Shown piece by piece: positions 3,715-55,712 of a DNA stretch of 64,000 nucleotides. The stretch is from Candidatus Dojkabacteria bacterium (GTDB lineage Bacteria > Patescibacteriota > Dojkabacteria > GCA-002793355): contig CP129477.1 of NCBI GenBank assembly GCA_030583825.1, positions 247,252-311,251 of the forward strand, in the 5' to 3' direction. The stretch's first letter is position 1. Every line of letters starts with the position of its first letter. The notes under the pieces are model-generated. The model had not been told where the DNA came from, did no database searches, and was given only the letters and a program-made list of their open reading frames with translations. A program made the translations under genes and the position numbers.

Positions 3715-4743
3715 TTACTGTGCGAGATATTCTTCAATAATCGTCTGGAATGCTGAAAATGGATATGCACCACCAATGAATTTTCCTTTTACAGTACCGT
3801 CACTCTGGAGTTTTCCAATAACAAATCCTGGTGTTCCAATGCCACCCATTCCGTTTGCCTGCAACCATGCTGCAAGATTCCCCTGCAATTCAGTTACATC
3901 CTGCACGTCTTCTGCAACGACATTTTGTGTTTCTTTATTCTGAGCACATGAGTTTACTCGTCCGACATCAACTCCTGCTTGAGCAATAATTGAGTTCATA
4001 ACGGTAACATCGAAATCAAGACCGCTTGCTCCAGATTTCTGAAGCTTATCAAGCTGTGCAAATACTTGGTCATGGAAAATCTTATACGCAGAAAATCCTC
4101 CAATTTGGCGAACACATTCTGCACGAAGTGCTGTTTCTGTCGCTGCTGGCTCGTGAATAGACAATGGAAGGTTTTTATACACAAATGCGACCTGACCGTT
4201 ATTAATGTAGTTTGTCTGGATTGATTCATATGTTGCCGTTTCGGTCTTTTGGCCAGTCTGTACGTTAATTCCTGTAGCAAACTGTCGGCAGAATACACAC
4301 ATAAAGTCTGTTAATTCAACGATAACGACTTTTGCTTTATTTAAATCTCCCAATACAGCGCGATCTCGAACACGAATAACTGTTTCAGGAAATTGCTCTC
4401 CCGCCAATGCAGGATCTACAGTTCCGGTTCCTACTGCAGTACCTGTTTTTGCTCCCTGTGCTTTTAAGCCAAAGTACAATCCTCCACCGATACCGACGGC
4501 AAGAATCACTGCTGCAACAATAATTGCAACGGGTGTTGTTAAGGCAATTTGTGGAACTTTGATTGTAATATAGTCACCACCTGCTTTTGCCGACTTTGTA
4601 GTCGAAGAAACTGATTCTGCTGAGGCTTCTACAGCTTTTCGCTTTACAGCGGATGTTTCAGTGGCGTTTTTCTTGCTCACTGCGGAATTTTCTGATTCTT
4701 TCACTGACGGAATTGTAAAGTTATATTTTTTGTACTGTACCAA
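3715..4743 (-). CDS. DsbA-like thiol:disulfide oxidoreductase with an N-terminal membrane anchor
   Basis: A thioredoxin-fold CxxC motif (FMCVFCRQF) and one TM helix near residue 70. Confidence 0.7.
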   Translation of the reverse strand: MVQYKKYNFTIPSVKESENSAVSKKNATETSAVKRKAVEASAESVSSTTKSAKAGGDYITIKVPQIALTTPVAIIVAAVILAVGIGGGLYFGLKAQGAKTGTAVGTGTVDPALAGEQFPETVIRVRDRAVLGDLNKAKVVIVELTDFMCVFCRQFATGINVQTGQKTETATYESIQTNYINNGQVAFVYKNLPLSIHEPAATETALRAECVRQIGGFSAYKIFHDQVFAQLDKLQKSGASGLDFDVTVMNSIIAQAGVDVGRVNSCAQNKETQNVVAEDVQDVTELQGNLAAWLQANGMGGIGTPGFVIGKLQSDGTVKGKFIGGAYPFSAFQTIIEEYLAQ

Positions 4744-4850
4744 TCGGAGAGAGTTTTTGTCAAGGAAATATAAGAGTTTGCGCCATTTGTTTGACCTGCG
4801 AGACTAAATATAAAACATTGAATACGAGTGCGTGGACAGTAGTTACCTTA

Positions 4851-4861
4851 TGGGATATAAT
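4851..4861 (+). promoter_or_regulatory. Candidate promoter -10 region (TGGGATATAAT) for the ncRNA candidate
   Basis: TATAAT at 4856-4861, with a putative transcription start about 6-7 nt downstream at the first base of the closing stem. Confidence 0.35.
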
Positions 4862-4866
4862 TTACT

Positions 4867-5059
4867 AGACTCTATAGATTTGCTCTTTCTTTTAATAAGA
4901 AGAGATTACGGTGGCTTTTACTCAGCGACCAGACAAGACGAAAAAAGAATCCAATGCTCTAAGCAAAGATGGCCCTTCCCCCAAACCATCTTCCCCCGGA
5001 TTTCTTTATCGTTGTTTATGTCTGTTGCCGCGCCCACCTCATTTCTATAGAGTCTTTTT
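4867..5059 (+). ncRNA. Candidate structured non-coding RNA of about 193 nt, class unknown. Possibly a 6S-like rod architecture or a C-rich SD-targeting sRNA.
   Basis: A perfect 12-bp terminal inverted repeat, AGACTCTATAGA (4867-4878) and TCTATAGAGTCT (5044-5055), is followed directly by TTTTT. Internal stems are GGTGG/CCACC and AGATGG/CCATCT. The motif CTTCCCCC is duplicated. The element has its own -10 box and lies in a 530-bp gene-free interval. Confidence 0.4.
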
Positions 5060-5194
5060 CCCCTTTATTTTCTTTCTCGAGAAAGAGAAAAATGTAACAG
5101 TTACGCGAGTTTAGTAGCTATTTATTAATGAGTTTTGAAGAGCAAGATCCTTTATTTTTAGCCTGGACAGATACCTCAAGCTATAGGTCAAAAG

Positions 5195-5203
5195 TGGTAT
5201 AAT
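5195..5203 (+). promoter_or_regulatory. Extended -10 promoter TGGTATAAT
   Basis: A TGnTATAAT match, with a consensus SD (GGAGG at 5263-5267) seven nt before the ATG at 5275. Confidence 0.45.
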
Positions 5204-5274
5204 ACACTTAACCTGCAAGGGAGGTTGCACTAAAGGATACGCGGGAAATCCTATAAAAGAAAGGAGGTGATTAA

Positions 5275-5565
5275 ATGACCGACATGAGTGGAGTTGAGCT
5301 GTATCGCAGGAACGGACTCAATAACGTAGAAAACAACTTCAACGTTGACGAAATCTACGAAGCCGCAGTCCAGTCGCGTGAGCCAGATGTTCTTTCTATA
5401 TGGCAAAAGCCTAAAGAAACTGGTCATGGAACTGACACAATTCTCGCTCTCACACCTCTTCTCCATCTACCTGCGAAGCTGAAAGAGCTTTACGCTGCCT
5501 GCGGAAAGCCGCTATATGTTATCGCAGTCGATTCGGAAGAGTTCCCGCCCAACACGTATCCTTAA
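5275..5565 (+). CDS. Hypothetical small protein (96 aa)
   Basis: The best SD in the window (AAAGGAGGTGATTAAATG) and its own extended -10 promoter. No recognisable domain. Confidence 0.5.
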   Translation: MTDMSGVELYRRNGLNNVENNFNVDEIYEAAVQSREPDVLSIWQKPKETGHGTDTILALTPLLHLPAKLKELYAACGKPLYVIAVDSEEFPPNTYP

Positions 5566-5765
5566 ACGATCCCCCTTGCAGGCCTCTTCCCTATTTACCG
5601 TCACTCCTAAACAACCTCCAACTCATTGTGTTTTCTTTTGTTATACGCTACAATACTATTGTTATTATTGTGAAAGCAATATAACACTCGCAGGCAAAGA
5701 TCTGTGCAACTCAAGTTGTATCAGCGCTAGCTAGAGGGTTCTATTTATATTTTGTTCGGTTTGTT

Positions 5766-6023
5766 ATGAATAAATTGTTCGTGGGAAGCTTGCCTTTCCG
5801 AATGACCGATGAAGAGTTACACCAGCTCTTCGCTCAAGTAGGTCCAGTCGTATCTGCAAAAATCATCATTGATCGTGCAACCGGTCGCTCAAAAGGCTTC
5901 GGTTTTGTCGAAATGGAAAATGAATCAGACGTTGCGAAAGCAATTGAACAGCTTAATGGATCAGAAGTTGATGGAAGAACTATCGTTGTAAACGAAGCTC
6001 GACCAGAAGCACCAAGAAGATAA
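5766..6023 (+). CDS. RNA-binding protein with a single RRM domain
   Basis: RNP-2 (LFVGSL) and RNP-1 (KGFGFVEM) motifs. An 85-aa glycine-free short form. Confidence 0.85.
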   Translation: MNKLFVGSLPFRMTDEELHQLFAQVGPVVSAKIIIDRATGRSKGFGFVEMENESDVAKAIEQLNGSEVDGRTIVVNEARPEAPRR

Positions 6024-6960: not shown

Positions 6961-7033
6961 GGTGGCTGTAGCTCAGGGGTAGAGCACCTGTCTGTGGAAC
7001 AGGATGTCGTGGGTTCGAAACCCATCAGCCACC
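6961..7033 (+). tRNA. tRNA-His (anticodon GTG) with a genome-encoded G-1
   Basis: Cloverleaf folded by hand. Acceptor GTGGCTG/CAGCCAC, with an extra 5' G pairing discriminator C73. D stem GCTC/GAGC. Anticodon stem CCTGT/ACAGG with loop CTGTGGA (U33, anticodon GUG). T arm GTGGG-TTCGAAA-CCCAT. CCA is not fully encoded. Confidence 0.85.
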
Positions 7034-7386
7034 CATTTTGGGATTTTTAGACAACAAAATTGTCATTTCTTCTTTACTGGTCGGTATTTTCTGAGGTTCT
7101 AAGGTTTGTATAGCCTTCTCAAATTTAGGTTTTGCTTTCTTAATTATTTCAAGCGGTTTATCAACTTCTATTTGAATTTGTAAATCCTTAATAACAATAT
7201 TTGCTCCAAGTTGTAACAGTATCTCATTCTTAATAGGTAAATCTCCCTTTTCAAATCTGTCTTTAGCTTCTTTTGCAAACTTAAATGACTTCTTAGCTTT
7301 CTCAGTCCATTCTGAATCGTCAGCTTCTTACTAACTTTATCCAATTTGTCTTTTTGTTGTTCAGCTTTAACCTTCTTAACACTCAT
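7025..7386 (-). pseudogene. Frameshifted small gene relic. A Lys/Glu-rich helical protein of about 125 aa if one frameshift is repaired.
   Basis: The ATG frame (MSVKKVKAEQQKDKLDKVSKKL) continues in another frame (ADDSEWTEKAKKSFKFAKEAKDRFEKGDLPIKNEILLQLGANIVIKDLQIQIEVDKPLEIIKK...) that has no start of its own. The stop codon lies inside the tRNA-His 3' end. Confidence 0.35.
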
Positions 7387-7411
7387 ATTTATACTTATAT
7401 ATTTTTTACAA

Positions 7412-10400
7412 TTATTGTGATTTTTCTATAATTGCTATCTCCTCGGGTGTTAGTTCATAAATCTTATAAACTCTTTGGTCAATTTGCTTACCTAAATTAC
7501 TAATTTGACTCTGTAAATTCCTCAATTCATTCTGTTTTGACTTAAACCAATTGAAAAGTTCTTCTGTCTTATCAAGTGTCATTTTTATTTTCTTTTGTTC
7601 TATAATCTCAACCAATTCATTCCAACCCATATCAATCAATTCACCTTTGATGGAAAACTTCCCATCAAAATGTAAATAGTTATTAAGAAACGATAATGAT
7701 TGAATATTTAACCCCTCATACAGCTCAATAGCTTTTTCTATTTGTTTATAAAGTAATGCTAAGTCTTGCTGTATATCTTTTGTAGGAATATTTATAGGTA
7801 TCTTTGAAAGGTTAACACTTTTGACCTCTGGGAAGACTCTTCCTTTTTCAGGAACTAAAAATCTATAAACAAAACCTATCAAGGTTGAATTTAATATTGT
7901 GGCTAATGATTCTAGGCTGATGCCTTCAGTTTTTAGGGTTAAATTATAAACATTGTTTAAGTTTAATCTACCTTGTACATCTACGGCACAAATAATCCTA
8001 TCCGCTGTTTGTCTAATTACTATCTTTTTCTGAGAGAAATCAAGGGAATTTCTCGGTTCAGCAAGCCATTCACCATAAGCAAGCCATCTACTGGAATCAG
8101 ATATGAAAAACTGCTTAATATCTCCGCCAATTATATACTTTTGGTAAGAGTCATCTTTTTTATCAATCCCATCGTAAATTCTCTTTCTTACAATGTCCTC
8201 ATCTTGAGCTGGTTTACCTTTTCCTTTCTGGTAGGGTTTTATTCCTACTGTTGGCTTTGCGACTTCATCTAATCTAACTGCTTTTGAAAAAATTTTATCA
8301 ATTATCTTTATTGAATTTTCATCATAGTCTAGATTAAACCCATTTGATATATTTTTCCTCCATGTATCCGAATTAGCTATACTTCTTTCTTGATTTATAA
8401 ATGATTCTAATTGTTTAATACTTCTAGTCTGTATTTCATAATGTTTTATAACTGATGACTTTTGACATACAAGAATTGATGTTTCTGCTGTTACTTCTTG
8501 AAATGCTTGATATTTTAGTAACTCAACTATAATAAGCTTGTTTTCAAGTAGAAGTTGTCGGATTTTTTCAAAATAGTGCATTGCAAGCCATGTTGAGGGA
8601 ACTATGAAACCAATGTATCCATTCTCCTTCACTAACATTAGTGACTTCTCAATGAATGCTATGTATGTTTCAAATTGATACTCTGTATGTTTATAATTCT
8701 CAGATATATACTTCTTCTCATTTGGTTTTAATTCAGCTCCCCATGGAGGGTTTCCAATAATTACATCAAACCCGCCGTCCTGCATAATATCCTTAAATTC
8801 AGCATTCCAGTTGAAAGCCTTGTTACCAGCAATTTCAGGGTCATCAATTAGTGAGTTACCACACTTAATATTCTTATCTAAATTCTGCAAAGGCTCACTG
8901 CTTCTAGCTGTCTTTAACCATAGTGCTAACTTAGTTATTTCAACACTTTCTTGATTCAGGTCAACACCGTATAGATTATTCAAAAGAATAGATTTATTGT
9001 TTTCAGCAGGGTTATAGTCAAAGAGGGTTTGTGACTCTCCTTTTGCCTGTTTCTCCGCAATTAAAGCGTCATACCTTGCTTTATACTCGTTTCTAAGAAA
9101 TGAATGGGCTTGATTTAAGAAAGCACCGCTACCACAAGCAGGGTCAAGTATCTTAATTGTGCTTAATTTGTCAGGGTATTCTTCTAAATATTTGCCTACA
9201 GTATTTTCTACAATGTATCGGGTTATGTATTCAGGAGTGTAGAATATCCCATCCTTTTTTCTTCTACCTTTCTTTTCAACTGATTTATCTACAGTTCCAA
9301 TAACAACTTTATCTCCTGATTCTGTAAGCAAGTTCCCACCTTGTTCAAGCTCAAGATGGATATTCTCTTTAATAGTCTCTAAATCGCTAATACTTTGCTC
9401 AAAAATATGACCTAAAATGTTTACATTCAAATCGGTTTCAAAGTCATACTCTGCAAGGTGCATTAAATGACTCCAAAAATCATCTTTAATTGATAGATTA
9501 TCCAGTAAATCATCAAAGGCAAATAACCCTCCATTGTAAGCATTTATAGGCGGTTTAACTCTGTTGTTTCCTTTATCAATTGCAATGAATAAACCCTTAA
9601 ATTCAGTCCATACTCTTTCGTCACTTGGAGAAAGTGAATTGATGGCTCTATCGTAGGTATTCTTAACGATATTTAGGGGGAGTAACGAGCTTGTATCTTC
9701 ACAAAACAAAGTGAATATAAATCTATCAAGTAACTTCTGGGTTTTCTCAAGTAATAATACTTTGTTTACAGTTGGGTTGTTTTGAGATAAATGATTAAGC
9801 AATCCCAAACGAACCTCTTTATATTCAGAATAGAACTTTTTAGTGATGTCTTGTTCTGCCTCAGTCGTGTCTTTGGCTAAAACATCAATAATGCTTTCCT
9901 TCTCTTTAGATATAAGGTTTTCTTGTGAGAGTAGGAAATAAAATCTTTTTAGTTCGTTTTCTTGAATTAAATCAATAACATCAAATTTTTCATAATACTC
10001 TTGAGTTTTATGCTTGTTATAAAGTCTAATCTCTTTGAAATTTGAAACTATAATCCAATTACAACCATCGTATTTAGTAGCGTATAAATAAGCCTGTTCA
10101 ATTGGTGTTAGCTTCTCAGAACCTCTATTTTGCCTTTTATCAAGCTGAGTTTTTGCATCTTTTAACTCAATTACCGCTTTAGTTAATTTTGTTTCTTTAC
10201 TAAACCAACCTAAGCTACCATCAGGCTCTTTACTATCGTTTTCAATTCTAGGGTGCTGTATGAGGGTCCATTCTTCATTCCCTGTGGTTACATCGCTATA
10301 ACCTAAAATAGCCTCAAAAAAGGTGCTTAAAAACTTCCCTTGCACACTTTTTTCCTTTGTCTTTTCAAGGTCACTATCTTTAAGGGCTTTTTGCCAACCT

Positions 10401-10495
10401 TCAAGAAGTTTCTTTGCAATTTCTAGCCTTTCAGCGTTAGGAAACTCAAAAGAGTGCATCTTTTGCTGTAGTAGCTTTTTGTTTATTAAATTCAT
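7412..10495 (-). CDS. Type IIG restriction-modification enzyme (MmeI/Eco57I-like): a fused PD-(D/E)xK endonuclease, gamma-class N6-adenine methyltransferase and target-recognition domain.
   Basis: The N-terminal nuclease motif EPDGSLGW...IELKDAK. MTase motif I (ILDPACGSGAFL) and motif IV (IIGNPPWG). A C-terminal TaqI-like specificity region. 1027 aa. Confidence 0.75.
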   Translation of the reverse strand: MNLINKKLLQQKMHSFEFPNAERLEIAKKLLEGWQKALKDSDLEKTKEKSVQGKFLSTFFEAILGYSDVTTGNEEWTLIQHPRIENDSKEPDGSLGWFSKETKLTKAVIELKDAKTQLDKRQNRGSEKLTPIEQAYLYATKYDGCNWIIVSNFKEIRLYNKHKTQEYYEKFDVIDLIQENELKRFYFLLSQENLISKEKESIIDVLAKDTTEAEQDITKKFYSEYKEVRLGLLNHLSQNNPTVNKVLLLEKTQKLLDRFIFTLFCEDTSSLLPLNIVKNTYDRAINSLSPSDERVWTEFKGLFIAIDKGNNRVKPPINAYNGGLFAFDDLLDNLSIKDDFWSHLMHLAEYDFETDLNVNILGHIFEQSISDLETIKENIHLELEQGGNLLTESGDKVVIGTVDKSVEKKGRRKKDGIFYTPEYITRYIVENTVGKYLEEYPDKLSTIKILDPACGSGAFLNQAHSFLRNEYKARYDALIAEKQAKGESQTLFDYNPAENNKSILLNNLYGVDLNQESVEITKLALWLKTARSSEPLQNLDKNIKCGNSLIDDPEIAGNKAFNWNAEFKDIMQDGGFDVIIGNPPWGAELKPNEKKYISENYKHTEYQFETYIAFIEKSLMLVKENGYIGFIVPSTWLAMHYFEKIRQLLLENKLIIVELLKYQAFQEVTAETSILVCQKSSVIKHYEIQTRSIKQLESFINQERSIANSDTWRKNISNGFNLDYDENSIKIIDKIFSKAVRLDEVAKPTVGIKPYQKGKGKPAQDEDIVRKRIYDGIDKKDDSYQKYIIGGDIKQFFISDSSRWLAYGEWLAEPRNSLDFSQKKIVIRQTADRIICAVDVQGRLNLNNVYNLTLKTEGISLESLATILNSTLIGFVYRFLVPEKGRVFPEVKSVNLSKIPINIPTKDIQQDLALLYKQIEKAIELYEGLNIQSLSFLNNYLHFDGKFSIKGELIDMGWNELVEIIEQKKIKMTLDKTEELFNWFKSKQNELRNLQSQISNLGKQIDQRVYKIYELTPEEIAIIEKSQ

Positions 10496-10517
10496 GTTCT
10501 AATCCTTATATTTATTG

Positions 10518-12269
10518 TTAAATACTCTCAAAGTAATTCCTTATACTTTGTGATAATAGCTTTTTTCTTTGAGTTAAAAATTCTGAATAGTTTAACTCGT
10601 AAAACTTATACGGTAGGGCATGATTCTTTAATACAGTTTCTAAATCAGTCCTACTGTATTGTTCAAATTCCTTAAAGTAATCCATTGGTGAGTTATCAGA
10701 AATTACAATGTTTGTTTTGTAGTCAAGATAAAGATAGTTCGCTACTTGATTCTGTTCTGTCTGTTCAACAATACCGATACCATTCAAATAATTCTTTGGG
10801 AATATATGGTGTTTATCCAAGCGAGCTTTCTTAACTGTAATTACAGGGTCAAACAGGTCTGATATTTTCTTAGTAGAAAATAGTAGGTCGACATTATTTC
10901 TAATCTGTGAAGCTATAAATACCAGCCATTGAGGATTCTTTGAATAAGATGATGTCAGCAATGCAGGCATCGTAATTTCCCAAAAGTCATTTGTTATTTC
11001 TGATTGTATTCTGCTATCCAATAGAGAAATAAACTCATCACCATTTTTTGCGTTTCTAATTAAAGCTAAATCGCTTTCAAAGTAGCTTTCTGATGAACCT
11101 GAATATCTTGATTTTAATGCTGACATTAAAAACCATCTTGAAACTATTCTTTCAAGCTTATGAAATTCAATATTAAACCTGTATTTGCCAATTAAGTAGA
11201 AGGCGTAAGAATAGAAGAAATTTGTTCTTGAGGTAATTAAATCACTATGCTTAAACCCTAACGACTGAATAAGATTTATATAATCGTGCCAAGTAGTATT
11301 ATCAAGTCCATTGGAGACATACTCTTCAAGCTCATTAAATCGCTTTTGTTTTAGTTCTTCAATAAATTCTCTTGTTTCAAAATCTCTACCTCGTAGAAGC
11401 GAGTAAACATCGCTCATTCTACCTCTGTTAAAACCATATCCAACTATAGCTCTAAGTATTTCTCCTGGTTTAACATCAATGAGATGATTAAATGATGAGT
11501 ACTGTAAACCCTGAGAATTTGGATTATTGCTTTGCATTGAGAAGTCCTCAATCTTCTTGCGTCCACTTTCCCAAAATACAGATAATAGGGTCAAAACAAA
11601 ATCAGATTGTTTTAGTACAACTCCTTTGCTGTTCACCCGAACAAAGATACTAGCAACCGTTTCTTCATCAACATTTTCTGCTATCTCTAAAATCGTAAAA
11701 TCATAAGACAGAATTGACCTTAAATGTGTAATGTTTTGAGAGATTATTTCTTCTTGTTCTTGTGTAGTGTCCTTATTAGCTTTTAACCTTTGAATAAACT
11801 CATTTATAAAGCGATACTCGCTAAAATCATTTTGAAACAAAAGGCTAATATCTGTAATGTATTCAACATCTCTATCAGTTGCGACATTGGAAACTTCAAA
11901 CTTCTCTAATAATGGATTAAAAGCTATTTTAATACGCTTTTCTTTATAATTTGCATCAATAATCGGAATCCCTTTTATTGTGGCAAATAGAGCGGTAAGT
12001 CTTTGTTGACCATCAATAATCAAGCTTTTTGCGTTACTTTCCTTTTTATCAGTGCCAATATCTTTTCTGTTATTGTCATTCACGTTCTCCCAAAAGAGAA
12101 GATAACCAACGGGATAACCTCTATAGATTGAGTCAAACAAATCTCTAACCTTGGTTGTATCCCACACGAAAGGACGTTGAATATCAGGTAAGGCTATCTT
12201 ACCGTGGTCAATATCGTTTATCAGTGTTTGAATCGGATATTGCGTAGTCTTAAAAATTGTTTTACTCAT
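10518..12269 (-). CDS. GmrSD-family type IV (modification-dependent) restriction endonuclease-like protein with DUF262 and DUF1524 domains
   Basis: DUF262 motifs (IQRPFVWD, IIDGQQRLTALF) and the DUF1524 His-Me finger (DKHHIFPKNYL). It lies 22 bp upstream of the type IIG gene on the same strand. Confidence 0.75.
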   Translation of the reverse strand: MSKTIFKTTQYPIQTLINDIDHGKIALPDIQRPFVWDTTKVRDLFDSIYRGYPVGYLLFWENVNDNNRKDIGTDKKESNAKSLIIDGQQRLTALFATIKGIPIIDANYKEKRIKIAFNPLLEKFEVSNVATDRDVEYITDISLLFQNDFSEYRFINEFIQRLKANKDTTQEQEEIISQNITHLRSILSYDFTILEIAENVDEETVASIFVRVNSKGVVLKQSDFVLTLLSVFWESGRKKIEDFSMQSNNPNSQGLQYSSFNHLIDVKPGEILRAIVGYGFNRGRMSDVYSLLRGRDFETREFIEELKQKRFNELEEYVSNGLDNTTWHDYINLIQSLGFKHSDLITSRTNFFYSYAFYLIGKYRFNIEFHKLERIVSRWFLMSALKSRYSGSSESYFESDLALIRNAKNGDEFISLLDSRIQSEITNDFWEITMPALLTSSYSKNPQWLVFIASQIRNNVDLLFSTKKISDLFDPVITVKKARLDKHHIFPKNYLNGIGIVEQTEQNQVANYLYLDYKTNIVISDNSPMDYFKEFEQYSRTDLETVLKNHALPYKFYELNYSEFLTQRKKLLSQSIRNYFESI

Positions 12270-23379: not shown

Positions 23380-23769
23380 ATGATTACAGATAAAGATAGT
23401 ATCACAAAGTTACAATTTCGTTCTCACCTTCCACGATTTTATAAAGAGCATACATACCTTTTTGCCGTATTTGAACCACATGAGCAGAATTTATCAGCAA
23501 CAGATACTTGCAATATTCTGGCAAAAGAATATATGAATCTTGTTCTCGCAGAAAGAAGTAATGACATCAAATCTTTGGTATACCTCAGGTTTCGAGAGCT
23601 TGAATCTGAAGATAATGATTTTAAAAATGTTGAGCTTGCATTCAAACTAGAAAATGGAAAATTTCTCTGCGGGAAAGTAAAAATCTTCAAAAATACTTTC
23701 TGCTATTTTGAAGATAAGTCTTTATGGATGGATCTCCCGTCTCTTGATCTGAGTAATTTCGCTACGTAA
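23380..23769 (+). CDS. Hypothetical protein (129 aa)
   Basis: ORF with typical composition and no recognisable motif. Convergent with the LUD gene, with a hairpin between them. Confidence 0.4.
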   Translation: MITDKDSITKLQFRSHLPRFYKEHTYLFAVFEPHEQNLSATDTCNILAKEYMNLVLAERSNDIKSLVYLRFRELESEDNDFKNVELAFKLENGKFLCGKVKIFKNTFCYFEDKSLWMDLPSLDLSNFAT

Positions 23770-28238: not shown

Positions 28239-28373
28239 TTAATTAATGCGCGCATATTTACCGAATAAAGAGTTCTTTTGCTTTGACAAAAACTCTTCCT
28301 TCAGACGGTTTAATGTATGCCTGCAGTCTCGACTTTTAAGTCGAAAAAGCTTCAAAAAACCGTATATAACAAA

Positions 28374-28408
28374 GAAGCCTCCCTTTCGGGAGGCTTCTCT
28401 TTAATTTT
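28374..28408. terminator. Bidirectional intrinsic terminator hairpin
   Basis: GAAGCCTCCC-TTTC-GGGAGGCTTC perfect 10-bp stem with T-rich flanks. Confidence 0.5.
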
Positions 28409-28620
28409 ACGAGTCTATTATCTTAGAAAAACCTCCCAGCGACTGTTCCAAATCATAAGGGCAATAAGAAGGTGGAAAAATCGTGCGAAATAGGTTTGTC
28501 CAAAACAATAGTTAATCATAAAATTGGAGGTATTGTATTACGGGAATAATGATACGTCAATAGTTTTTTGATTTCTTCGCTACTTCCAAATACAAAAACG
28601 ACTCTAAAAACGGGCAAATA

Positions 28621-46144: not shown

Positions 46145-46254
46145 GTTGGAATGAATCCATAAATTTTTTAGTGAACTCAAGCCCGTTTCTATATATAGAT
46201 TTTGTGTGAGATGTTAAGAAAAATTTATGTTTGAGTGACAATTGACCTATTTTT

Positions 46255-46263
46255 TGGTATAAT
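46255..46263 (+). promoter_or_regulatory. Extended -10 promoter TGGTATAAT
   Basis: The same TGGTATAAT element as at 5195. It is followed by a roughly 200-nt leader containing repeated GTGACAATTG motifs. Confidence 0.4.
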
Positions 46264-46479
46264 ACATTAATTTAGTATCAAAATTGATAGCACTTACACT
46301 CAAATACGGAGCAAAAGGAGTTTTTGCAATAAATGAATTTTCTTTTTGAAAGAGCATTCATCCCTTGTAAAAAATATCCTTCTCCATTTTTATACAGTGA
46401 CAATTGTTTTTTGTCGCCCATTTGAGTGAGTTTTGTACGTCAATTAAGAGCTAAAGCATATAACTTATTTTTATTATTT

Positions 46480-47940: not shown

Positions 47941-48423
47941 TCAAACGAGAGTTTCCGTTAATCGGAGCCGCCTTTGCGGCGCATTTGATTCACCTTCAGA
48001 TTGATACTTTTGTGGAATTACTTCTTCTTTGGTACCATCATCGCCTTTAAGAGCATTCCATAGCCGTTTTGCACCAGCAATAACTGCCCTGCCGGTAAGT
48101 TCTACAGTATCAACCGTGATTGCTGCGGCAGTAAGTCCAGTCATCATTGCAACAAGAGCTAACCGACGGACACTCGAGGGATGATCAACATATACTTTTT
48201 CTCCCGCGATACCTCTGGCGATTTGTGAACCAGCACTGCCAATTGCTTCAACAAGCGCAGGAGCGACATCACGCGTATTTCCAAAAATACGGTATTCATC
48301 AGTACTCCCGGAGTTTTCAGCCTGTTGAGAAGGTTGTGTCGTTACTGCAGTAGCCTCGGTTGTATCCGCAATAGGAGACAGTGAATCACTTGAAAAAATA
48401 TCGTCGTCGTATTCGCTTTCCAT
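47941..48423 (-). CDS. Hypothetical protein (160 aa)
   Basis: A higher-GC ORF with an acidic N-terminus. Confidence 0.4.
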   Translation of the reverse strand: MESEYDDDIFSSDSLSPIADTTEATAVTTQPSQQAENSGSTDEYRIFGNTRDVAPALVEAIGSAGSQIARGIAGEKVYVDHPSSVRRLALVAMMTGLTAAAITVDTVELTGRAVIAGAKRLWNALKGDDGTKEEVIPQKYQSEGESNAPQRRLRLTETLV

Positions 48424-55411: not shown

Positions 55412-55545
55412 CACTAAGAAACTATCGTAATTCTTACTGCCGTGGAATATATTTAATCTAACCAAGAGGACTGCTTCTTTTTGCAACACGCAGCATAGGG
55501 ACAATGCGGGCAGATCTTGCAGAAGCAGCAGTTCATATATAACAG

Positions 55546-55570
55546 AAAGGGGCGCTTTCGCGCCCCTTTT
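55546..55570. terminator. Bidirectional rho-independent terminator
   Basis: AAAGGGGCGC-TTTC-GCGCCCCTTTT perfect hairpin with a T-run. Confidence 0.65.
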
Positions 55571-55712
55571 CTATTTTGGTACCTAGAGAACCTGACTTAG
55601 AGATTGGAACAACGCTCATATCTGCGCCGTCCGGCCTTGCAACACAATAGCAAATCGTTGCTATTGGTTGCTACGGTTCCGTAAAACTCATTGAAGAATA
55701 AAACAGGGAGTT

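Follow-up and report, generated by a model that had tools for sequence, protein, structure and literature searches.

What occupies the 531 bp without genes (4744-5274) that lie between a DsbA-like gene (3715-4743, minus strand) and a 96-aa ORF in the genome of a Candidatus Dojkabacteria bacterium? The window that we analysed comprises 64 kb, ~6% of the small genome (1.09 Mb, ~39% GC) of this member of the CPR, and in compact CPR genomes a gap of this size is out of the ordinary. An earlier note, made from the letters of the window, had proposed that a gene-free interval of ~530 bp holds a discrete, promoter-led and highly structured non-coding segment of ~190 nt. The measured length of the gap agrees with that description, and the segment itself is supported by a promoter with 11 of the 12 consensus bases and by a folding z-score of -6.2. 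We consider it probable that the segment is a real, discrete non-coding RNA, and we put at about even the chance that positions 4867-5059 of the plus strand constitute a stand-alone, lineage-specific small RNA gene of this organism. At present the candidate is a well-formed orphan prediction from a single sequence, for which the reading as a structured non-coding RNA is plausible.

The candidate is not an assembly artefact, because its sequence is identical in independent assemblies. Short contigs assembled from five other sequencing runs (L001-L005) carry the neighbouring 96-aa gene; three of them (L001, L002 and L005) span the candidate and agree with it throughout, L004 begins inside it, and L003 begins downstream. 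The organism is present in the Logan runs DRR859381, DRR859399-401 and SRR29109021/23. With a GC content of 0.43, the segment stands out from either flank (0.37).

The TATAAT box reported in the earlier note is present, and together with a TGGACA hexamer at a spacing of 17 bp it forms a putative sigma-70 promoter that deviates from the consensus at a single position (TGGACA-17-TATAAT, 4833-4861; 11/12). The window contains eight such sites, compared with 2.1 in simulated sequences. The identical hexamers with identical spacing recur at 52694-52666 on the minus strand, ahead of an SD-led HNH-like gene, and other near-consensus sites also precede real genes, one of them a 12/12 site located five bases before the ATG at 48423. 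The predicted transcription start of the candidate coincides with the first base of its closing stem, P1. The coordinates of the promoter, of the elements of the predicted fold and of the neighbouring ORF are collected in the table.

Table. Features of the candidate RNA locus, in coordinates of the window
Feature	Position	Strand	Description
-35 hexamer TGGACA	4833..4838	+	Putative promoter of the candidate RNA
-10 hexamer TATAAT	4856..4861	+	Predicted transcription start at A4867/G4868
Candidate small RNA	4867..5059	+	~189-193 nt, with predicted ends and fold
P1, 5' arm AGACUCUAUAGA	4867..4878	+	12-bp closing stem
P2, local hairpin	4883..4904	+	8 bp, loop UUAAU; in the 5' strand between P1 and P3
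P3, 5' arm GGUGG	4910..4914	+	Pairs with CCACC at 5034-5038
Asymmetric internal loop, 5' side	4915..4924	+	10 nt opposite ~5 nt at 5029-5033
P4 (16 bp) and P5 (9 bp), 5' strands	4925..4952	+	Partners at 5012-5028 and 4998-5007
P6, small apical hairpin	4955..4965	+	UGCU-CUA-AGCA
P7, apical hairpin	4966..4992	+	7 bp; 13-nt loop CCCUUCCCCCAAA (4973-4985) with the first C-rich motif
Single-stranded CCCCC	4993..4997	+	Last part of the second CUUCCCCC (4990-4997), within the apical junction and followed by the return strand of P5
P1, 3' arm UCUAUAGAGUCU	5044..5055	+	12-bp closing stem
U-run	5056..5059	+	Directly after P1; inferred 3' end
AU-rich imperfect palindrome around TTTCTCGAGAAA	5065..5092	+	14 bp; no U-run on either strand
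Orphan 96-aa ORF	5275..5565	+	Own extended -10 TGGTATAAT (5196-5204), strong SD

The predicted fold is closed by the perfect 12-bp inverted repeat that the earlier note had pointed out (AGACTCTATAGA and its complement TCTATAGAGTCT). The two arms are the sole matches to AGACTCTATAGA in the window, even with one mismatch allowed. The T-run described after the 3' copy is found as TTTT, and the second palindrome said to follow it is located at 5073-5084. In the predicted structure P1, the local hairpin P2 and a long arm meet in a three-way junction, and the arm contains all three internal pairings that had been proposed (GGTGG/CCACC, AGATGG/CCATCT and GAATCC/GGATT), each of which recurs in the minimum-free-energy (MFE) fold. 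The 5' side of the asymmetric internal loop exposes UUUUACU (p>0.7 for the unpaired state). The overall shape is branched, with a forked apex formed by P6 and P7, and not a plain rod. Near the apex the repeated motif noted before is borne out: the octamer CTTCCCCC occurs at 4975 and 4990, both copies are predicted to be unpaired with p>0.9, and no further copy exists on either strand of the 64 kb. Nearly all pairing probabilities are close to 0 or 1, which indicates a well-defined ensemble.

Taken singly, the 12-bp repeat is no more than expected by chance, with four perfect 12-bp inverted repeats separated by up to 300 bp in the window versus 3.0±2.5 in Markov simulations. The combination of features does exceed chance. 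The 193 nt of the plus strand fold with an MFE of -57.8 kcal/mol (z=-6.2; none of 200 shuffled sequences equalled it), and the interior without the repeat still reaches z=-3.7 (0/200) with its helices unchanged. A sliding scan gave the candidate a composition-corrected MFE residual of approximately -4.4 SD, which places it with the few 190-nt segments of the window that are structured most strongly; the comparison is slightly in its favour, because its exact ends were used for scoring whereas the other segments lay on a 30-nt grid. The more extreme folding spots that we inspected, at 28239-28620 and 55412-55712, owe their signal to ordinary GC-rich terminators.

The same figures bear on the possibility that the repeat acts at the level of DNA, with its arms as operator half-sites (each arm makes up 12 positions of the 16-bp palindrome AGACTCTATAGAGTCT), as the borders of an invertible segment, or as the 12-bp terminal inverted repeats of a decayed MITE. 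We regard such an element as quite unlikely. It would be in keeping with a perfect repeat that encloses 165 bp between divergent genes and has one of its arms at the predicted +1, and the 177 bp from the start of one arm to the start of the other correspond by our arithmetic to ~17 helical turns. However, the repeat is at chance level, and neither an operator nor an inverton nor a MITE explains the long-range pairing inside it, which is not a matter of chance. Between the arms there is no promoter-like site on either strand; the flanks, TTACT and TTTTC, form no target-site duplication; and no recombinase or transposase is found among the neighbours. Moreover, the 64 kb contain a single copy of the element and the related loci none, its orientation is identical in the four sequences that cover it (the window and contigs L001, L002 and L005), and the boundaries of the indel that distinguishes the window from its closest relative (4832-5509; see below) do not coincide with those of the repeat.

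If the segment is transcribed into RNA, the strand has to be assigned. A good fold is predicted for the minus strand too (-66.4 kcal/mol, z=-5.4; interior z=-2.75), so that the assignment depends on the promoter and the U-run, from which we infer the plus strand; neither a promoter-like site nor a U-run was found on the minus strand. The z-score of the plus strand is better both for the whole segment and for the interior, and its fold contains three G-U pairs, compared with eight on the minus strand. The predicted 3' end is the weakest point of the candidate. P1 followed by four or five U residues does not resemble a canonical intrinsic terminator, because P1 closes a 'loop' of 165 nt, and a terminator scan made no call at P1 and the U-run. 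The genuine terminators of this genome are GC-rich hairpins with GAAA loops. The transcript may therefore be longer than the segment delimited here.

A protein product appears unlikely. The two overlapping ORFs of 72 and 67 aa in the interval, which the earlier note had already dismissed, have no Pfam match and are uncalled in L001, L002 and L005; for the 72-aa ORF a relative was sought among 5.8 billion proteins and none was found. The position of the promoter relative to possible start codons is also informative. A TATAAT-like box ends 4-10 nt before the start codon in ~30 of the 65 long ORFs of the window, and an SD-like tetramer of any kind precedes ~19 of the 65. Based on these counts leaderless mRNAs are the apparent rule, and the Dojkabacteria genome appears to rely on them largely. 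Downstream of the -10 box of the candidate there is no ATG, GTG or TTG within 4-10 nt, and the first start codon is a TTG at 4880. Unlike many leaderless genes, the candidate thus has no start codon at the distance concerned, which argues against coding. Elsewhere in the window, perfect or near-perfect TATAAT boxes end 5-9 nt before the first start codon of many genes, for example at 23380(+), 31816(+), 40747(-), 48423(-), 52082(-), 31058(-), 6823(-), 59806(+) and 61959(+).

We then compared the candidate with known RNA families. Rfam was searched with the whole window at the gathering score and with segments of 601 nt and 201 nt at E≤10, and no family matches the candidate. This includes the models for which the earlier note had proposed a scan (6S, SRP, RsaE and others), as well as 6S-Flavo, Ms1 and 6C, none of which was found at E≤10. 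ARAGORN detects no likeness to a tRNA or tmRNA in the candidate; its sole call in the window is tRNA-His at 6962-7034. Two further systems were considered and rejected. Retron msr-msd RNAs carry terminal inverted repeats (a1/a2), a short 5' hairpin and then a long 3' hairpin. The candidate resembles them in its 12-bp a1/a2-like terminal repeats, its short 5' hairpin and its long 3' hairpin, but no reverse transcriptase follows downstream, and no RT domain occurs in the ORFs of at least 110 aa between 1 and 17 kb. A type III toxin-antitoxin RNA was rejected for the absence of tandem repeats.

Homologues were sought with several probes. R1, a covariance model made from this one sequence, matched only itself in the window and the loci of relatives, and found nothing in 21 kb of the closest relative with the filters off. 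The translated RNA region, used as a multi-seed probe, has no relative in JGI metagenomes, GTDB genomes or viral contigs; a pattern of the closing-stem arms has no match in viral contigs, and blastn found none among phages and plasmids. A pattern based on the loop motif matched 55 loci in JGI metagenomes, all of which the covariance model exposed as chance matches. The collections searched thus contain no homologue from which covariation or purifying selection could be read.

Five relatives of the DsbA-like neighbour, with 41-66% identity, were compared at this locus, and the candidate RNA is absent from all five. In the relatives at 41-49% identity the upstream regions are unrelated. The closest available relative, the JGI contig L006, encodes a DsbA-like protein that is 66% identical and keeps the order of genes (DsbA-like protein, RRM protein, tRNA), with a spacing of just 295 bp between the first two. 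In the window, the 96-aa orphan and then the RRM gene (5766-6023) follow the candidate. Alignment of the two loci shows that homology ends at ~4831 and resumes at ~5510, with window positions 4832-5509 facing positions 3706-4000 of L006. Owing to this indel of ~680 bp, L006 has neither the promoter nor the RNA, and ~80% of the 96-aa ORF, counted from its 5' end, is missing there as well. The 3' end of this ORF survives in L006 as non-coding DNA (LCVIAVDLE* versus LYVIAVDSEE in the window), and its high GC content (0.48) continues into the part that is shared with L006. A deletion in L006 is therefore more parsimonious than an insertion in the window. Because the closest relative lacks the RNA, the RNA would be dispensable at that evolutionary distance.

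These observations also suit a non-functional origin, in which a recent or decaying stretch, fortuitously self-complementary, lies beside a fortuitous or orphaned promoter and is under no selection. The candidate is a singleton with no relative in the collections searched, it was deleted without replacement in the nearest relative, and the neighbouring ORF is likewise an orphan. Nevertheless, we judge this origin unlikely, as several independent features would have to come together: an 11/12 promoter aligned with the start of P1, a U-run, the z-score of -6.2 and a duplicated octamer that is predicted to be unpaired. In addition, a gap of 531 bp is unusual for a compact CPR genome.

The 96-aa ORF deserves separate consideration, since the RNA could serve it. 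Its GC content of 0.48 lies ~2.7 SD above the mean of the ORFs in the window (0.395±0.032). PHROG, PADLOC and NCBIfam gave no match and no viral relative was found; by these searches the ORF is a true orphan. A supposed relative, P0008, was rejected as a repeat artefact, and a single-sequence AlphaFold model is unusable (pLDDT 44.7). The RNA might be a cis-acting leader or a dedicated regulator of this ORF, either through transcription from 4861 that runs past the weak U-run or through pairing of CUUUCUUUUA (4885-4894) with UAAAAGAAAG (5254-5263). In the version with a released RNA, the pairing would abut the SD and control one of the few SD-dependent genes of a largely leaderless genome. In favour of such a role, the RNA and most of the ORF were lost jointly in L006. 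The 5' arm of P2 (4885-4894) is perfectly complementary over 10 nt to 5254-5263, a length reached by 1.3% of random 66-nt windows of the genome; a second match, of 12 nt at 92%, connects 4879-4890 with 5080-5091; and P1 with its U-run falls short of a canonical terminator. However, the ORF has its own extended -10 and a leader of ~70 nt, the complementary tract is locked in P2 with an unpaired probability of ~0, co-folding of the RNA with the 5' UTR yields no net gain of energy, and purine-rich tracts near ribosome binding sites produce such matches easily. A role confined to the 96-aa gene is in our estimation rather improbable.

The comparison with L006 also brought out features further downstream. 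The promoter of the RRM gene, TTGTGT-17-TACAAT (-10 at ~5651-5656), is conserved. A stretch of 79 nt (5667-5745) located between this promoter and the RRM start codon is missing in L006, so that the 5' leader of the RRM mRNA would be much longer in the window. Upstream of the RRM promoter, a C-rich non-coding block at 5566-5640 (CCCCCTTGCAGG...TCTTCCCTATTT...CCTCC) is ~70% conserved with L006.

The architecture of the candidate had been likened to that of 6S RNA. A 6S-like RNA would bind the housekeeping RNA polymerase holoenzyme in the guise of an open promoter, and synthesis of a product RNA (pRNA) on the 5' strand of the internal loop would then release it. The candidate shares with 6S RNA (SsrS, RF00013) a length of ~190 nt, paired ends and a long irregular helix that is interrupted by an asymmetric loop, the 5' side of which (UUUUACUCAG) is predicted to be single-stranded. 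The literature that we searched holds nothing on 6S RNA in the CPR, so that a divergent one is conceivable; Dojkabacteria and noncoding RNA appear in it together only in an incidental mention. On the other hand, RF00013 and all 6S-like models of Rfam remain unmatched, even at E≤10 on 201 nt. The internal loop is formed by only 10 nt versus 5 nt, P2 is inserted in the region of the closing stem, and the apex is forked where a single terminal loop is expected. In related genomes, genes for 6S RNA are strongly syntenic (PMC8414754), but no such RNA occurs in the closest relative at the syntenic site or within ±10 kb. With the unmatched models, a branched fold that agrees only loosely with the canonical 6S architecture (PMC8414754) and the absence from the syntenic locus, the 6S-like claim is not supported, and we consider a 6S RNA at this position very unlikely.

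The duplicated, exposed CUUCCCCC is, as far as the predicted fold goes, the sole functional handle of the candidate, and recalls the C-rich seeds of RsaE/RoxS and 6C. In these RNAs C-rich loops serve as seeds for the binding of mRNAs: the motifs of RsaE (PMC6158497), RoxS (PMC5419742) and 6C (PMC6486639) bind G-rich or SD regions of mRNAs independently of Hfq (PMC6158497, PMC5419742, PMC6486639). RsaE/RoxS of Firmicutes and 6C/B11 of Actinobacteria are stand-alone units that extend from a promoter to a U-run, as does the predicted transcript of the candidate. They present two or more C-runs in loops or single-stranded linkers, and the candidate likewise presents the loop CCCUUCCCCCAAA and CCCCC (p>0.9). 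The differences are pronounced as well. The candidate matches neither RF01820 nor RF01066 at E≤10, is approximately twice as long, and has paired ends and a closed, branched shape, whereas RsaE/RoxS and 6C consist of two or three consecutive hairpins that end in a terminator. Its host seems to be largely leaderless and would thus offer few SD targets, unlike the setting of RsaE/RoxS and 6C. No target was found either in a scan of the 64 kb or by co-folding with the 5' UTR of the 96-aa ORF. Of the earlier suggestion of a C-rich anti-SD small RNA, the part that concerns the motifs is supported, since they are predicted to be single-stranded (p>0.9).

We hypothesize that the stand-alone RNA gene would work as follows. 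The sigma-70 promoter would start the transcript at the first base of P1, and the transcript would fold into a closed structure with P1, a three-way junction containing P2, the irregular arm P3-P5 and the forked apex of P6 and P7, with the U-run coming right after the last paired base. The RNA would be made and would be stable because its ends are paired. Two copies of CUUCCCCC would be displayed single-stranded, the first in the 13-nt loop of P7 and the second in the apical junction, and could act in trans by pairing with G-rich or SD-like stretches of mRNAs, in the manner of RsaE/RoxS and 6C; alternatively, the motifs could bind a protein. A target of the GGGGGAAG type near a start codon is not present in the 64 kb (~6% of the genome), and with so few SD-led genes in this genome, the scope for an anti-SD mechanism would be limited. 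We regard the C-rich seed mechanism specifically as possible but rather unlikely, which is a weaker claim than that for the RNA itself.

We speculate further that the candidate could be the founding member of an undescribed class of structured RNAs and the first recognisable regulatory RNA of a Dojkabacteria lineage, either a branched functional analogue of 6S RNA that escapes the Rfam model, or a protein sponge or riboregulator that works through its pair of C-rich motifs; this is a long shot. The regulatory RNAs of the CPR are essentially uncharted. If verified, the candidate would indicate that riboregulation persists in extremely reduced genomes of the episymbiotic type, even where mRNAs appear mostly leaderless, and it would provide a concrete molecule to study.

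The window contains several other stretches of interest. On the minus strand at 28368-28560, a TTGACG-17-TACAAT promoter-like site (28560-28532) is followed by ~155 nt and then by a strong GAAA-loop terminator (~28397-28368). This unit may include a hydrophobic ORF of 33 aa that starts 12 nt after the -10 box, and it has a sub-threshold match to Phe_leader (38.7 bits versus a gathering score of 55), for which the terminator is probably responsible. Also on the minus strand, ~300 bp without genes at 55412-55712 fold strongly and contain a GC-rich GAAA-loop terminator, with a sub-threshold match to PrrB/RsmZ (27.8 bits versus a gathering score of 44). The region 6962-12269 begins with the tRNA-His gene (6962-7034) and continues into a defence island with a GC content of 0.32-0.33, which encodes an MmeI/Eco57I-type restriction-modification enzyme (7412-10495) and a GmrSD-type endonuclease (10518-12269). 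Finally, on the plus strand at 46235-46425, an 11/12 promoter (GTGACA-17-TATAAT) precedes ~155 nt of AT-rich, strongly folding sequence ahead of an ORF at 46426, and GTGACAATTG is repeated in this stretch at ~46236 and ~46398.
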